Shown piece after piece: positions 12,931 to 18,914 of a stretch of 64,000 nucleotides of DNA. A program made the translations under genes and the position numbers. The notes below the pieces were generated by a model that did no database searches, was not told where the DNA came from, and worked only from the letters and a program-made list of their open reading frames with translations. The stretch spans positions 406,043 to 470,042 of the forward strand of contig CAWARI010000002.1 of assembly GCA_963784395.1 (NCBI GenBank), read 5' to 3'. The stretch is from an uncultured Alphaproteobacteria bacterium. GTDB lineage: Bacteria > Pseudomonadota > Alphaproteobacteria > Sphingomonadales > Sphingomonadaceae. Position 1 is the stretch's first letter. Each line of letters opens with the position of its first letter.

Positions 12931-13755
12931 ATGCGGATCAAGACAATTTTCGCCGCCACGCTGGCGACTGCTTCCATCGGGCTGGCCTCCTGTCAGACCG
13001 CGGGCGCAGCGCCGATGTCGAGTGCCGACTACATCGCCCTTCGCGCCGCGATCGACGGACCGGCACGCAAAGATCAAAATCGCGCACGCGACGCCTATCG
13101 CCACCCTTATGAAACTTTATCGTTCTTTGGTTTGAGGCCGACCGATACGGTGGTCGAAATCTGGCCGGGCGGCGGCTGGTATACTGAAATCTTGGCACCC
13201 TATCTGGCGCAAGGCGGCGGCACCTATTTTGCCGTTGCCGGCGATCGCGGCCTCAATGGCGTCCGCAGCTTGTCGAGCGCCAGTCCGATCGCCTTCGGCG
13301 CGATCCGTACGGCCAATTTCCCAGTCCTCACCGATGGGGGCACCCCCGTCCCGGCTGAAACCGCCGATGCGGTCCTGACCTTTCGCAATGTCCACAACTG
13401 GATGATGGGCGACAGGCCGTTCGCCGACGACGCATTCCGCCAGATGTATGCGATGCTCAAGCCCGGCGGCACGCTGGGTGTCGTCGAACATCGCCTGCCC
13501 GAAAGTCGTGCCGATGCCGATCAACTGAAATCCGGCTACGTCAAAGTATCTACCGTCCGTCGTCTCGCCGAACAGGCGGGCTTCCGCTTCGTCGGATCGA
13601 GCGAGATCAACGCCAACCCGCGCGACAAGGCCGATTACCCCGAAGGCGTATGGACTCTACCCCCGACGTACACGCTCAAAGACGCCGACCGGGCAAAATA
13701 TGCCGCGATCGGCGAAAGCGACCGGATGACCCTGCGCTTCGTCAAGCCGCGCTGA
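12931..13755 (+). CDS. Predicted lipoprotein class I SAM-dependent methyltransferase
   Basis: Lipobox LASC, VVEIWPGGGWYTEIL motif I, LTFRNVHNW, LKPGGTLGVVEHR. Confidence 0.8.
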   Translation: MRIKTIFAATLATASIGLASCQTAGAAPMSSADYIALRAAIDGPARKDQNRARDAYRHPYETLSFFGLRPTDTVVEIWPGGGWYTEILAPYLAQGGGTYFAVAGDRGLNGVRSLSSASPIAFGAIRTANFPVLTDGGTPVPAETADAVLTFRNVHNWMMGDRPFADDAFRQMYAMLKPGGTLGVVEHRLPESRADADQLKSGYVKVSTVRRLAEQAGFRFVGSSEINANPRDKADYPEGVWTLPPTYTLKDADRAKYAAIGESDRMTLRFVKPR

Positions 13756-13813
13756 GAAAGCGGCGCTTGCCGCCAGCCTCCTCTCGCGGGTAGGTCGTAA
13801 GGCGGGGTAGAGA

Positions 13814-15298
13814 ATGACGATTCTGGCGAAAATATTGGCGAATGAAGGCGATGGTGTCGCAGTCGTCGTGGGCGACCGTGCGATCCGCTATGCCCAATTT
13901 TTGGCCGATATCCGCAGTGCCGCCGCGATGTTTGCAGATCAGGGCGTGGGTATCGGAACGAAAGTCGGGTTGCGTGCAGGCCCGCTCCTAACCGGGCAAT
14001 CCTACGCAAGCTGGGTCGCCCATCTCGCCACACTTTGGATCGGCGCACGTCACATCTCGATGGTTGAAGCGGGCTCGGTTAGCGACTGTATCGCGGCGGG
14101 CGTGGTCGAAATTGCCATTGGGTCGCAATTGGGGCTCAAACGCGTTCCCGCGACCCATCGGCAGATTCGCTTCGACCTTGATCTCGACGGCCTTCGCGAT
14201 TCCGAAGGCGCCGCTCCGAAGCTGGCTGACGACCAAGCAGTTCGCATCAACTTGACCTCCGGTACGACGGGACGTGCAAAGTTCGTTGCCTGGGACGCAG
14301 CGATGATGGAGCAGCGGGTTGCCCAAGTCGCCGAAGGGCTATCGCTGTCCCCGGAATCTCGGCTCTTTCCTCTGTTACAGATGCGCACGACCGCGGGGTT
14401 CCGCTATCCGATTGCAATCTGGCAGGTCGGCGGATCCGTCCAGCTACCAGAAGATGAACAAGCCTTGGCGCGGGATCATCGGGCGCTCGGAAAATCGAAT
14501 ATCCTGCTCTGTTCGCCGCCACAGCTGGAAGACCGATTGCGCGTTCACCAAGGGGATTGGGACGGCAAGGAAGGTCGCACGATCGTGACCCTGGGTGGTC
14601 GGCTGGGAACGGCCGTCCGTGACGAAGCGATGGCGAGAGCCTGTGGGCGGTTACTTATCAGCTACGGTGCAACGGAGACCGGGAGCATAGCCATCGGCGA
14701 CGCAGGGGCGATCGACCGCCATCCCGGCGCAGTCGGCTTTGTACGCAAGGGTATTGAAGTCGAAATTGTCGGTGACGACGGCCGCATCGTGCCGCCAGGC
14801 ACCAGCGGAATGATCCGGACAAGGTCGAACGTCATGGCGATGGGTTACGAACCGACCGAAATCGGAAGTTCGAACGACAACGCCCCATTTCAGCATGGGT
14901 GGTTTGTCCCTGGAGACCTTGGTTGCCTGTTTGAGGATGGCCTGCTGGCAATCGAGGGGCGAGCGAGCGATACGTTCAATCTTGGCGGCTGGAAAGTAAA
15001 CGCACAAGAACTTGAACAACGGATGCACAGAATTCGCGGGGTTCAGGACATTTGTGCTTGCGTCATGCAATTGGATGAGGGCGATTTGCTGACCTTTGCA
15101 TTGGTATGTCAGGACGAACAGGCAATCCCCTCGATCGCCAAACAGATCCAAAAACTCTTACTCAAAGGACGCCGGTTTCACGTTGTTCGTGTGCGGGCCC
15201 TTCCGCGGAATGCGATGGGCAAAATACCCCGCGCCATGATCGCCCAAAAATTGACCCAAGCCTACCAAGCGAAAAAAAAGAATATCGCCAATGCCTGA
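13814..15298 (+). CDS. Class I adenylate-forming (acyl-CoA/AMP ligase-like) enzyme
   Basis: LTSGTTGRAK (A3), SYGATETG (A5), PGDLG (A7), GRASDTFNLGG (A8), LPRNAMGKI (A10). Confidence 0.85.
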   Translation: MTILAKILANEGDGVAVVVGDRAIRYAQFLADIRSAAAMFADQGVGIGTKVGLRAGPLLTGQSYASWVAHLATLWIGARHISMVEAGSVSDCIAAGVVEIAIGSQLGLKRVPATHRQIRFDLDLDGLRDSEGAAPKLADDQAVRINLTSGTTGRAKFVAWDAAMMEQRVAQVAEGLSLSPESRLFPLLQMRTTAGFRYPIAIWQVGGSVQLPEDEQALARDHRALGKSNILLCSPPQLEDRLRVHQGDWDGKEGRTIVTLGGRLGTAVRDEAMARACGRLLISYGATETGSIAIGDAGAIDRHPGAVGFVRKGIEVEIVGDDGRIVPPGTSGMIRTRSNVMAMGYEPTEIGSSNDNAPFQHGWFVPGDLGCLFEDGLLAIEGRASDTFNLGGWKVNAQELEQRMHRIRGVQDICACVMQLDEGDLLTFALVCQDEQAIPSIAKQIQKLLLKGRRFHVVRVRALPRNAMGKIPRAMIAQKLTQAYQAKKKNIANA

Positions 15299-16472
15299 CC
15301 AGACTGCGGCACCAATCGCCATGTCGACGAGCAAAGCGGAGGGTCACCGCGCACGCCTGACGCGAACGTTGGAGGTACCATGTCCAGACGTCGATAAGGC
15401 GCGCCCGATAGAGGTGGGAGTTTTCTTGGGTGAGGGCGTGGGTCCAGAAGTCGTTCCCGTTGCGATCGATTTGCTCGAATATTTGGCGGACCATGACGGG
15501 CGAACGCTGAAACTGCATCAGGGCGGGTTGATCGGACTTCCAGCAAAGCAGCAATTCGGCAGCAGCTTGTCCAGCGAAGTGATTGATTTTGCGGGTAAGA
15601 TTTTCAGCGATGGCGGTGCGTTGTTCTGCGGTCCCGGCGGCGATCGTTTCGTTTATGAAATCCGTCGCGAATTTGACCTTTATTGCAAGTTCACCCCGCT
15701 CGAGCCCCTACCGGAACTGCGCGACGCCGGTGTGGTCCGACCGGAAACAGTCGCTTGTGCCGACATCATCGCGGTCCGTGAAAATATGGGCGGCATCTAC
15801 CAGGGAATCTGGGACGATACGGCCAATGATGGCGAACGCGTCGCGAGCCACCGCTTCGAATATCGCGAAGCCGATGTCCGCCGCATTATGGGCGTCTCGA
15901 TGCGCCTTGCCAAAAGCCGCCGCAACCAGGTTCATGTCGTGCTCAAGCCCGGCGGAATCCCGTCCATCTCGTCGCTGTGGCGCACTTGTGCCGAAGAAAT
16001 GGCGGCCGATACCGGGGTCGCCCTCAGCGAGCTCGAGATCGACAATGCCGTATACCAGTTGATTGCCAATCCGGGGCAGTTCGACGTGCTCGTGTCGCCC
16101 AACATGTTCGGCGACGTGCTCGCGGATTGCGGGTCACTCCTGCTGGCATCGCGCGGCCTCTCATTCTCCGGCAATTTCAACGATCGAGGCAATGGCGTCT
16201 ACCAGACCGGTCACGGCGCCGCCCGCGACATTGCGGGCAAGGACGTTGCCAACCCGATTGGCCAGATTCTCTCGCTCGGCATGATGCTGCGCGAAAGCTT
16301 TTGCTGGCCGGAAGCCGATGCGGCGCTCCGCTGCGCCGTACGAATGACTTTGGCGGGCGGGATTGCAACCGGCGACATTGCGGCGGCTGGATCCCGTATC
16401 GTCGGAACGCGCGCGTTCGGGGCCAAGGTGCGCGCAAATCTCGAGCAAGTCCTCGCAGAACGGTCGCTGTGA
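15291..16472 (+). CDS. Isocitrate/isopropylmalate-family beta-decarboxylating dehydrogenase, divergent
   Basis: GEGVGPEV, VRENMGGIY, IDN, NMFGDVLAD, HGAARDIAGKDVANP. Overlaps the upstream gene by 8 nt. Confidence 0.88.
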   Translation: MPDQTAAPIAMSTSKAEGHRARLTRTLEVPCPDVDKARPIEVGVFLGEGVGPEVVPVAIDLLEYLADHDGRTLKLHQGGLIGLPAKQQFGSSLSSEVIDFAGKIFSDGGALFCGPGGDRFVYEIRREFDLYCKFTPLEPLPELRDAGVVRPETVACADIIAVRENMGGIYQGIWDDTANDGERVASHRFEYREADVRRIMGVSMRLAKSRRNQVHVVLKPGGIPSISSLWRTCAEEMAADTGVALSELEIDNAVYQLIANPGQFDVLVSPNMFGDVLADCGSLLLASRGLSFSGNFNDRGNGVYQTGHGAARDIAGKDVANPIGQILSLGMMLRESFCWPEADAALRCAVRMTLAGGIATGDIAAAGSRIVGTRAFGAKVRANLEQVLAERSL

Positions 16473-18355
16473 GTGATCGTACCGCCCTCCTCCTGGTTGA
16501 CTGCCAGAACGACTTCCTCGATCGCGCCGGACTGACACCGCCGCGCGACGCCTTATTGCGGAGTATCGCGGCAGCACTCGACGACGCCCGTGCCCAGGGC
16601 ATGCCGATTTTCCACGTGAGGACCAGCGCTGGTCCCGAAGGTGGAAACGCCATGCCGCATCGCCGCGGCAATGCCGAGGTGATCGACGGGACGCATGGGG
16701 CGGCGTCACCAGACTTGGTAGCAGCGCAAGAAGGCGAGCCGATTTTCGAAAAGCGCTTCTTCAGCGCTTTCAATGCGCCGGGGCTAGTCGAAGCCTTGGC
16801 CGACGCTGGCATCACCGATCTCCGCCTTGCGGGTGTACACACCCATGCCTGCATCCAGGCGACTGCGCTCGACGCTTATGCTCGCGGCCTCAAGGTTCAG
16901 ATCGATCCAACGCTGATCGGGAGCGATCGTCCTGCCCTTGCCAAGCAAGCGTTGGAATGGATCGATGGACGCGCCGCCGAAGTGGTATCGTCGACAGGCA
17001 GCCCCGAATTCGTCCATCGGAAACCCACCGACCCCTCGGTCACTCTCTTCACAATTCGCGAATGTGACGCGACTTTCATCGACGAGGCTGTCGTTCGGCT
17101 GCGACAGAAACAACCGATCTTTCGGGCATTACCGCTTGAGGAGCGCAGGACACGCTTGCAGCAATTGCACGCACGCATTTCACGGGAACGCGTGCATTTC
17201 GTCGAGGCGCTGATCCGCGACGTCGGGAAGCCCCGCCGTGATGCCCAGGGCGAAGTCGATTATGGCCTCGCGCTGCTGGAGACAGTCGCTATGGCGCTGG
17301 ACGATCGGGAGCCGCATCCGGACCGCCTCGTGCGTTACCGACCGATCGGAATCGCTGGGATCATAACCCCGTGGAACAACCCGTTCGCCATCCCGCTCGG
17401 CAAGCTCGCTCCCGCGCTCGGTTACGGCAATGGTGTGCTGTGGAAGCCCGCTCCGGCGGGAAGTGGGATGGCTGCGATGCTCCACGACAGCCTTAGATCG
17501 GTGGGACTAGGCGCATTAGTCGAACGGATCGACGGCGATGCGGAAACGGGTCGTCAGCTAACCTCGGCGGACGGGATCGACGCATTGTCATTTACCGGTT
17601 CAGTGCCGGTCGGCCGGTCAGTCATCTTGCAAGCAGGACGACGCGCAATCCCGGTTCAGGCTGAGCTGGGCGGCTCGAATGCCGCCATCGTCGACGCCAG
17701 CGCGGACATTTCCGCCGCCGCGGGAGACCTGGTTAGCGCCATCTTCAGTTTTGCCGGCCAACGGTGCACGGCAATCCGCCAAATCGTCGTAATCGACGAG
17801 ATTTACGACGTTTTCGCCGCGCAGTTGAAGAATGCAGTCGGAAATTTGCGCGTGATCGACCCCGCTGATCCGGCATGCGACATGGGTCCGATGATCAACG
17901 CCGCAGCGCGCCAACGGGTCGCCGGGCAGGTCGAGGACGCGATTGCCAACGGCGCCATTCTGGTAACCGGCGGAACCGACGAAGTTCCGGGGTGCGACGG
18001 TCCCTGCTGGCTTCGGCCTACGATTCTTGCCAACCTTCCCGCGCACCATTCCCTGCTAACCGATGAAGCATTCGGCCCGGTCGCAACCCTCTTACGTGTC
18101 GCTACGTTCGAAGATGCGATTGCGGTGCACAACGCGACCGAATTCGGACTGGTCGGTGTGCTCTATTCTTCCGACGACAACCGGCAAAAAGAGTTTCTGG
18201 AGAAAGCCGAAGCGGGCATGCTTTCGGTGAATCGGGCTCGCCCCGCATTTTCTTCCGCTGGCCCGTTTTCAGGCTGGAAAGCGTCAGGCCATGGCGCGGC
18301 CGAGCACGGCCGTTGGAACCGCGACTTCTATACGCGTCCGCAAGTCGCTTACTAA
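16469..18355 (+). CDS. Isochorismatase-family cysteine hydrolase fused to an aldehyde dehydrogenase
   Basis: GTG start overlaps the upstream stop (GTGA). Hydrolase triad in VDCQND / KRFFSAF / HTHAC. ALDH motifs ITPWNNP, FTGS, ELGG, GQRCTA, EAFGP. The ORF-track extension from 15977 is out-of-frame overlap. Confidence 0.85.
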   Translation: MSDRTALLLVDCQNDFLDRAGLTPPRDALLRSIAAALDDARAQGMPIFHVRTSAGPEGGNAMPHRRGNAEVIDGTHGAASPDLVAAQEGEPIFEKRFFSAFNAPGLVEALADAGITDLRLAGVHTHACIQATALDAYARGLKVQIDPTLIGSDRPALAKQALEWIDGRAAEVVSSTGSPEFVHRKPTDPSVTLFTIRECDATFIDEAVVRLRQKQPIFRALPLEERRTRLQQLHARISRERVHFVEALIRDVGKPRRDAQGEVDYGLALLETVAMALDDREPHPDRLVRYRPIGIAGIITPWNNPFAIPLGKLAPALGYGNGVLWKPAPAGSGMAAMLHDSLRSVGLGALVERIDGDAETGRQLTSADGIDALSFTGSVPVGRSVILQAGRRAIPVQAELGGSNAAIVDASADISAAAGDLVSAIFSFAGQRCTAIRQIVVIDEIYDVFAAQLKNAVGNLRVIDPADPACDMGPMINAAARQRVAGQVEDAIANGAILVTGGTDEVPGCDGPCWLRPTILANLPAHHSLLTDEAFGPVATLLRVATFEDAIAVHNATEFGLVGVLYSSDDNRQKEFLEKAEAGMLSVNRARPAFSSAGPFSGWKASGHGAAEHGRWNRDFYTRPQVAY

Positions 18356-18377: not shown

Positions 18378-18452
18378 TGGTGGGCGTGGCAAGGATTGAA
18401 CTTGCGACCCCTGCGATGTCAACACAGTGCTCTACCACTGAGCTACACGCCC
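18378..18452 (-). tRNA. tRNA-Val (GAC)
   Basis: Reverse complement GGGCGTGTAGCTCAGTGGTAGAGCACTGTGTTGACATCGCAGGGGTCGCAAGTTCAATCCTTGCCACGCCCACCA folds as a cloverleaf with anticodon GAC and encoded CCA. Confidence 0.97.
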
Positions 18453-18530: not shown

Positions 18531-18914
18531 TTAAAGGCGTCCGTGCTGATCTTCGCTCTGAAACATGCGATCCACCTCGGCAACAAGGTCCTTGAGGTGG
18601 AAGGGCTTGGACAGCAGTTTCGCTTCCGGCGTCGTCTTGCCGGCCTGCAATGCGACCGCTGCGAATCCGGTAATGAACATCACGCGGATCGCAGAATCGA
18701 TCGAGCTCGCCTTCTGCGCCAATTCGATCCCGTCCATTTCCGGCATGACGATGTCGGTGAGGAGCAAGTCGAACTTGCCCGCCTGGAGCAACGGTACCGC
18801 TTCGGTACCGCAACCCACCGCCTCGACGTAGTAACCGACGCGCTGCAGCGCACGCTGCAGATATTCGCGCATGGACGTATCGTCTTCGGCAAGGAGAATG
18901 CGGATCATGGGCAT
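18531..18914 (-). CDS. cpdR: Single-domain response regulator CpdR
   Basis: ILLAEDD, LLTDIVMPEMDGIELA, FITGFAAVAL, SKPFHL. Sits between tRNA-Val and N-formylglutamate amidohydrolase as in other alphaproteobacteria. Start may be 18908. Confidence 0.88.
   Translation of the reverse strand: MPMIRILLAEDDTSMREYLQRALQRVGYYVEAVGCGTEAVPLLQAGKFDLLLTDIVMPEMDGIELAQKASSIDSAIRVMFITGFAAVALQAGKTTPEAKLLSKPFHLKDLVAEVDRMFQSEDQHGRL

Follow-up and report, generated by a model that had tools for sequence, protein, structure and literature searches.

The 64,000-nt stretch of DNA analysed here (the window) comes from an uncultured alphaproteobacterium of the family Sphingomonadaceae, and corresponds to positions 406043–470042 of its contig in a genome of 2.26 Mb that is 99.99% complete. 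The nearest related loci are found in Sphingomicrobium metagenome-assembled genomes (MAGs), and the sampled genus also takes in ‘Sphingomonas alba’ and Sphingomicrobium nitratireducens. The window carries a cassette of three genes, all on the forward strand. The first (13814–15298, 494 aa) encodes an adenylate-forming ligase of the ANL superfamily (PF00501, 92 bits), and the second (15291–16472, 393 aa) an NAD-dependent β-decarboxylating dehydrogenase that is similar to 3-isopropylmalate dehydrogenase (IPMDH) and has a rewired substrate pocket (PF00180, 216 bits). The third is an open reading frame (ORF) of 628 aa with a GTG start (16469–18355), whose product is a fusion of two enzymes: an N-terminal isochorismatase-fold cysteine hydrolase (residues 1–175, encoded at 16469–16993; PF00857, 113 bits over residues 5–175) and a C-terminal aldehyde dehydrogenase (ALDH; residues 184–628, encoded at 17018–18355; PF00171, 374 bits, with the Pfam Aldedh match covering residues 184–625). 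The dehydrogenase and the hydrolase–ALDH fusion form a functional unit of ancient origin that has been transferred widely and has yet to be characterised; in sphingomonads, the ligase has been joined to it.

The ligase and dehydrogenase genes overlap by 8 nt at the junction ATGCCTGA, and the dehydrogenase and fusion genes by 4 nt at GTGA. The stop codon that ends at 18355 lies 22 nt from the 3′ end of a tRNA-Val(GAC) gene on the reverse strand (18378–18452, found by ARAGORN and Rfam), which turns this end towards the cassette and marks its right boundary; the left boundary is a 58-nt spacer (13756–13813, forward strand) between the ligase start and an unrelated upstream gene (12931–13755). The three genes form one compact cassette and are probably co-translated. 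The original prediction made for this DNA had described the same overlaps and the same distance to the tRNA, and had pointed out that no transporter, regulator or carrier protein is encoded within the three-gene operon; the ORFs, junctions, tRNA and gene content bear out both descriptions. None of the three proteins reaches an NCBIfam equivalog cut-off.

Conservation of the core pair was studied by scanning one genome per species, which gave 265 relatives of the fusion; 80 loci were kept, and 52 of these encode full-length isochorismatase–ALDH fusions. Adjacency was tested in the 46 loci with enough flanking room, where the dehydrogenase gene directly precedes the fusion on its own strand in 45; in the remaining locus the two genes are adjacent but divergent. 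Loci with the core pair belong to at least eight phyla (Pseudomonadota, Acidobacteriota, Actinomycetota, Planctomycetota, Verrucomicrobiota, Rhodothermota, Binatota and Thermodesulfobacteriota), and the core gene tree disagrees with the taxonomy. The hydrolase domain alone found 295 matches at E ≤ 1e-10 among 1.84 billion representative proteins, and almost all of the best 150 of these are fusions of 580–690 aa or fragments. The extreme form of the association, also among these 150, is a 1049-aa triple fusion of Iso_dh, Isochorismatase and Aldedh domains (P0266), which occurs in one lineage and keeps the family signature; its identical presence in two independent assemblies makes an assembly artefact improbable. 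A second candidate, P0242, read as an Iso_dh–isochorismatase fusion, was rejected, as out-of-frame sequence at its junction marks it as a frameshift artefact. The genes thus occur together well beyond the source genome, a condition on which the original prediction had depended: the core pair is adjacent in all 46 loci tested across phyla, and the ligase–dehydrogenase–fusion trio forms a unit in approximately 15 sphingomonad loci. That prediction had failed to match the combination to a known pathway, and searches of the literature on the domain combination, the fusion, STM4012-type radical SAM proteins, and decarboxylating dehydrogenases with isochorismatase-like proteins likewise gave no characterised pathway.

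The dehydrogenase is a separate subfamily and not LeuB. Its place in the β-decarboxylating superfamily is given by PF00180 together with the catalytic Tyr, the Lys and the Asp-x3-Asp metal ligands, and its GGIY, LKPGG, EIDNA and FGDVLAD motifs align with the catalytic motifs of the substrate-bound structure 1A05. LeuB is its best-scoring named family (tartrate/D-malate dehydrogenase reaches only 128 bits), but the score against the leuB model TIGR00169 is 199 bits with a cut-off of 353, whereas real LeuBs of the same order score 440–471. In a maximum-likelihood tree, 45 family members are split from 8 sphingomonad LeuBs with support of 100/100, and so neither model score nor tree groups the enzyme with LeuB, a grouping that would have spoken for a housekeeping role. 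As read from the alignment, the two share the fold, the catalytic Tyr and Lys, the three metal-binding Asp residues and the NAD-type GxxxDIAG motif. They differ in the substrate pocket: of the Arg triad that clamps malate in LeuB (R95/R105/R133 in 1A05), the canonical Arg105 is replaced by Thr135, and Glu88/Leu91/Leu92 become Asp118/Val121/Tyr122, whilst the cassette family adds Arg119 and Lys133. Among the approximately 46 family members with a residue there, position 135 is T, V or S and never Arg, and position 118 is D or G in the family; R119, V121, Y122, R125 and K133 are each the sole residue at their positions in approximately 46 relatives, and F120 and P136 are near-invariant. Judged from these residues, the substrate may be a malate-like 2-hydroxy acid with a polar or anionic side chain, one carboxylate of which would be bound differently or be absent.

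The genomic background of the dehydrogenase is also unlike that of a LeuB. Of the two Iso_dh genes in the source genome, one is that of the cassette and the other encodes a type-II NADP isocitrate dehydrogenase. No LeuB scores above the cut-off, LeuC (the only match is an aconitase at 106 bits) and LeuD are absent, and an HMGL-like domain, as found in LeuA and in homocitrate and citramalate synthases, occurs nowhere in the genome. Without LeuC and an HMGL-like synthase, there is no isopropylmalate or related chain-elongation intermediate for the dehydrogenase to act upon. Most genus-mates also lack leuB and leuC, and these absences suggest leucine auxotrophy throughout this apparently free-living sphingomonad genus with genomes of approximately 2–2.5 Mb. 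One relative (G003) has a second Iso_dh gene (L116:6196–8914), which adjoins a plain ALDH gene on the same strand; it was rejected as an orthologue, having 32% identity and falling outside the family.

Both domains of the fusion keep the residues expected of active enzymes. In the hydrolase domain, a candidate triad of D11/K95/C128 and H49 are kept across phyla, and in the ALDH domain N303, E399 and C433 (in GQRCTA), which correspond to the oxyanion Asn, the general-base Glu and the catalytic Cys, are invariant. When the hydrolase domain was compared with the BiuH, YecD, PncA, RutB and YcaC equivalog models, none came near its cut-off (41 bits vs 370 for BiuH; 33 vs 195, 27 vs 174, 21 vs 378 and 16 vs 310 for the others). 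The nearest solved relatives of the ALDH domain are SSADH and malic semialdehyde dehydrogenase (MSA-DH; 8S33), at approximately 165–185 bits. In MSA-DH, the substrate carboxylate is bound by Arg166 and Arg284 (PMC11353897). At the carboxylate-binding Arg positions of SSADH and MSA-DH, a by-eye motif alignment places Ser427 (six residues before the catalytic Cys) and Gly311 (the Arg of ‘ITRK’) in the fusion; Arg432, beside the catalytic Cys, is invariant in the fusion family. An AlphaFold2 model of the fusion has a predicted local distance difference test score (pLDDT) of 86.8. No solved structure with its two-domain architecture was found, and a Foldseek search with the model returned generic ALDHs only, with no clue to the substrate.

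The best relatives of the ligase in the PDB are the malonyl-CoA synthetase MatB and oxalate-CoA ligase, at E-values of 1e-17 (4FUQ) or weaker, and the NCBIfam malonyl-CoA synthase model (MatB, PRK07514) is its second-best match, at 88 bits against a cut-off of 558. As read from the alignment, the TSGTTG, YGATE, GD and GR..D motifs and the C-terminal Lys in PRNAMGK are kept in 16 cassette ligases. An ANL ligase lies immediately upstream of the core in sphingomonads and in three further loci (L021, L029 and L033); other loci have a short AMP-binding gene (L026 and L040), an enzyme with adenylation and peptidyl carrier protein domains (A-PCP), alone or with a thioesterase (A-PCP-TE), or a ligase on the opposite strand. 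The window ligase is barely related to the A-PCP enzyme of locus L117 (25% identity over 107 aa), and thus the adenylating role seems, from these sequences, to have been filled independently more than once.

The genes around the core were tallied as 144 ORFs from 33 non-sphingomonad loci. The recurring families are AMP-binding (10), Rieske/LigXa_C (10), radical SAM (HemN-like, nearest to the STM4012 family; 7), the glycosyltransferase families GT2 (4) and GT28_C (4), Methyltransf_24 (4), PP-binding (3) and thioesterase (2). Five ABC-ATPase domains are present, at least some of them FtsE-type, as FtsX domains are listed too. Transcription-regulator, solute-binding, TRAP and MFS families are absent from the 25 commonest neighbour families listed, and on this count the neighbour profile suggests biosynthesis rather than catabolism. 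The preference for biosynthesis that the original prediction had expressed fits this tally, and it fits locus L117, where an operon (L117:2549–11918) from an AT-rich uncultured organism encodes an ATP-grasp protein (623 aa), the triple fusion (1049 aa), an A-PCP enzyme (815 aa), a Rieske LigXa-like protein and an O-methyltransferase. The same genes are found in L118, and both partner sets are joined here in one operon, the most complete version of the pathway. None of the Rieske, glycosyltransferase, methyltransferase and radical-SAM partners has an orthologue in the source genome. At two loci (L032:9859–11154 and L035:9901–11139), an Amidohydro_2 gene of LigW/ACMSD type lies between the fusion and the Rieske oxygenase, which may point to an extended pathway in which an aromatic or heteroaromatic acid is decarboxylated or hydrolysed.

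Among sphingomonads, the cassette is accessory and horizontally mobile. Of 301 Sphingomonadales genomes sampled, 3 carry the fusion, all from the genus of the window, and none of 15 further MAGs of this genus has the dehydrogenase; the locus is therefore not core. The trio occurs in at least four genomic contexts, and three different tRNA genes have it directly against their 3′ end: tRNA-Val(GAC) (the window, L008, L009, L012, L016, L018 and L022), tRNA-Cys(GCA) (L010, L014 and L091) and tRNA-Arg(CCT) (L023). Adjacency to a tRNA is expected by chance in approximately 1% of cases per context (48 tRNA genes in 2.26 Mb). Two genus-mates (L094 and L098) have exact empty sites, in which the 274-aa gene found upstream of the cassette is followed by approximately 90 nt and then tRNA-Val. 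Adjacency to tRNA 3′ ends, together with presence/absence variation among relatives, is the pattern of a tRNA-targeted islet; no att-like direct repeats were found at the cassette flanks, and no integrase among the flanking genes. As the composition is near native, integrase and att repeats are missing and the tRNA-Val site is common to divergent genomes, any transfer is old or repeated loss lies behind the pattern. Horizontal acquisition, as originally predicted, is supported by the three tRNA contexts, the empty sites and the conflict between tree and taxonomy.

This composition was measured as G+C at third codon positions (GC3), which is 0.63 for the ligase, 0.69 for the dehydrogenase and 0.68 for the fusion, compared with 0.77–0.79 for atpG/atpD and a genome mean of 0.72 (standard deviation 0.057). 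The preference of the first gene for A/T-ending codons, which had been noticed from the sequence, therefore holds against the atp genes but is mild: the ligase stands at approximately the 7th percentile of the genome, and the overall GC content of the cassette is not distinct. A scan for consensus promoters and terminators, which took in the 58-nt spacer, did no better than on shuffled sequence, and Rfam searches of the sequence upstream of the cassette, in the window and nine related loci, gave no riboswitch or other cis-element that belongs to it; the matches there were tRNAs and an unrelated thiamine pyrophosphate (TPP) riboswitch in L025. PADLOC gave no match to a defence system. In the tRNA-Cys contexts, the spacer of approximately 200 nt between tRNA and ligase (L010:5093–5300, L014:5159–5350 and L091:6162–6352) holds a conserved stretch, ...GCGTGCCA...AAAGCGCGTTGCG...GGCTTTGCTAnTGCA..., which could be the cassette's own promoter or operator.

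Upstream of the cassette in the window lie the atp operon, a T2SSE-type ATPase gene and a gene for a 274-aa hypothetical protein (12931–13755, forward strand) that has no Pfam, NCBIfam or PADLOC match. It follows the T2SSE-type ATPase in conserved order, and is found in 15 of 41 genomes of the genus, independently of the cassette. It was rejected as a fourth cassette member, being kept in genus-mates that have no cassette and missing beside cassettes in other contexts. Downstream, the tRNA is followed by a single-domain response regulator, an FGase-family gene and SapC; the response regulator, a 127-aa ORF read as CheY-like (18531–18914, reverse strand), lies between tRNA-Val and the FGase-family gene, and occupies the same position in the empty-site genome L094.

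How the four activities might work together can be put into a scheme, which we favour at slightly less than even confidence: the substrate of the core would be a masked hydroxy-aldehyde acid and its product a 2-oxo or dicarboxylic acid, which the ligase would then activate. The Cys-hydrolase domain would strip an amide or acyl mask, and the fused ALDH would at once oxidise the exposed aldehyde to a substituted malate, probably one with an extra anionic or polar group. The IPMDH-like enzyme, with NAD+ and Mg2+, would carry out an oxidative decarboxylation to the 2-oxo acid, which the ANL ligase would adenylate; in sphingomonads this would most likely give a CoA thioester for unlinked enzymes to use. 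The job of the ligase may be done in other phyla by an A-PCP or A-PCP-TE enzyme beside tailoring enzymes, and for this reason the cassette may be seen as the minimal form of a pathway to a small-molecule building block. The order of the steps is inferred by analogy only. A more far-reaching form of the proposal is that the core belongs to an undescribed, phylum-spanning biosynthetic route, which would make an unusual 2-oxo or dicarboxylic acid, adenylate it and link it to a carrier, to CoA, or to a glycan or peptide acceptor, with the sphingomonad cassette as its minimal, tRNA-hopping form; this we regard as possible, with the balance of evidence leaning against it.

Several observations weigh against the scheme of unmasking, oxidation, decarboxylation and activation. 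The ligase comes first in the window operon, an order just as compatible with a scheme that begins with activation. Genes for a carrier protein, an acyltransferase or tailoring enzymes are missing from the sphingomonad cassette, and with no tailoring genes and no partner orthologues in the genome a purely catabolic end point, in which an acyl-CoA enters central metabolism, is possible. The ALDH appears, from the by-eye reading, to lack the carboxylate-binding arginines of SSADH and MSA-DH, which weakens the picture of a semialdehyde of a dicarboxylate as its substrate. The hydrolase matches no characterised subfamily, and amidase is a guess at the level of the class, whilst the similarity of the ligase to malonyl-CoA and oxalyl-CoA synthetases is weak.

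Such a catabolic end point is central to the strongest competing explanation, which we consider unlikely though it deserves to be taken seriously. Here the cassette would be a catabolic or detoxifying shunt: it would break down an N-containing compound brought in by generic uptake, such as an amide, ureide, enamide or an acylated amino-aldehyde, with the hydrolase freeing a reactive aldehyde, the ALDH oxidising it, the IPMDH-like enzyme decarboxylating a hydroxy-diacid and the ligase sending the final acid (e.g. malonate or an oxalate-like acid) to central metabolism as a CoA thioester. A fusion of hydrolase and ALDH that traps a reactive aldehyde follows the logic of PaaZ, and in sphingomonads the cassette is self-contained and lacks tailoring genes. 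Carnitine catabolism also runs through a Rieske enzyme, an ALDH and a decarboxylating dehydrogenase (PMC11353897), and Rieske proteins make up 10 of the neighbour ORFs at distant loci. Malonyl-CoA synthetase and oxalate-CoA ligase as the best solved relatives of the ligase, and malonyl-CoA synthase as its second NCBIfam match, would agree with such an end point, but at 1e-17, and at 88 bits against a cut-off of 558, these similarities are slight. The neighbourhood also argues the other way: no regulator or uptake family is among the 25 commonest neighbour families of the 33 non-sphingomonad loci, and those that do recur are PCP, thioesterase, glycosyltransferases, methyltransferases and radical SAM, with an ATP-grasp protein in L117.

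It is less probable again that activation comes first and serves as a protecting group. The ligase would then begin on a hydroxy-polycarboxylate and convert one of its carboxylates to a thioester or amide; the derivatised compound would be the substrate of the IPMDH-like enzyme, after which the hydrolase would remove the group and the ALDH would finish the product. The gene order of the window (ligase, dehydrogenase, hydrolase–ALDH) follows this sequence of events, and the family-wide T, V or S in place of one of three carboxylate-clamping arginines fits an uncharged group at that point, but the role of the lost Arg could simply have passed to Lys133, two positions before it. At least 13 core loci have no detected adenylating gene nearby, and in others it is downstream or on the opposite strand; moreover, this order of steps offers no obvious source of the aldehyde. 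That the three genes are merely chance neighbours, the dehydrogenase being the organism's LeuB and the ligase and fusion unrelated to it, we hold to be already refuted: the dehydrogenase is indeed the sole IPMDH-like gene of the genome and LeuB is its best-scoring named family, but it falls below the leuB cut-off in a fully supported separate clade, has no isopropylmalate to oxidise in a genome without LeuC and a LeuA-type synthase, belongs to a genus most of which lacks leuB, leuC and the cassette dehydrogenase alike, and is part of a core that is adjacent in every testable locus and exists as a triple fusion.

The four catalytic domains come from well-known superfamilies, and none can be assigned to a characterised subfamily. 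The cassette is a solid lead for enzyme discovery built from known folds. Conservation across at least eight phyla, together with the 1049-aa weld, marks a real pathway that is missing from metabolic maps. Its smallest self-contained version is the sphingomonad cassette, which has just three genes, lacks tailoring enzymes and comes without a native LeuB background, and is for this reason a convenient entry point to the substrate and product. Solving it would also correct the annotation of the dehydrogenase, which is routinely given as 3-isopropylmalate dehydrogenase. If the phylum-spanning route were real, it would define a new subfamily of β-decarboxylating dehydrogenases and give the first function for an isochorismatase–ALDH fusion, probably with a new class of metabolite.

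The closest characterised parallel to the core is the carnitine route of Acinetobacter baumannii, in which the Rieske monooxygenase CntA/B is followed by MSA-DH, which forms D-malate, and by a decarboxylating malate dehydrogenase, which forms pyruvate (PMC11353897). In this route, as proposed for the core, an ALDH makes a hydroxy-dicarboxylate that an enzyme of the IPMDH/ICDH superfamily decarboxylates oxidatively to a 2-oxo acid, and Rieske oxygenases are frequent neighbours of the core in other phyla; the route is a characterised precedent for an ALDH that acts before a decarboxylating dehydrogenase. The cassette dehydrogenase is nearer to LeuB than to tartrate/D-malate dehydrogenase (199 vs 128 bits) and has its own pocket signature, the cassette ALDH appears to lack Arg166 and Arg284 of MSA-DH, and the source genome has no Rieske partner. 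The carnitine pathway has its own transporter and regulator and, to our knowledge, no hydrolase domain, fusion or ligase.

In architecture, the fusion is analogous to PaaZ, an oxepin-CoA hydrolase fused to 3-oxo-5,6-dehydrosuberyl-CoA semialdehyde dehydrogenase, in which the reactive aldehyde is oxidised as soon as it is released. The hydrolase of PaaZ is a C-terminal domain of the MaoC hot-dog fold, whereas the cassette fusion has a cysteine hydrolase of the isochorismatase fold at its N-terminus; the two proteins are homologous in the ALDH domain only, and paa genes are absent. The hydrolases PncA, RutB, BiuH, CSHase and YcaC have the same fold as the cassette domain and, as the alignment is read, the same conserved Asp-Lys-Cys triad, but the equivalog models give it only 16–41 bits against cut-offs of 174–378, and no characterised member is known to be fused to an ALDH. 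Similarly, the MatB-type malonyl-CoA and oxalyl-CoA synthetases are the best solved relatives of the ligase, which has the full set of ANL motifs, but the similarity is too weak for the cassette enzyme to be their orthologue.

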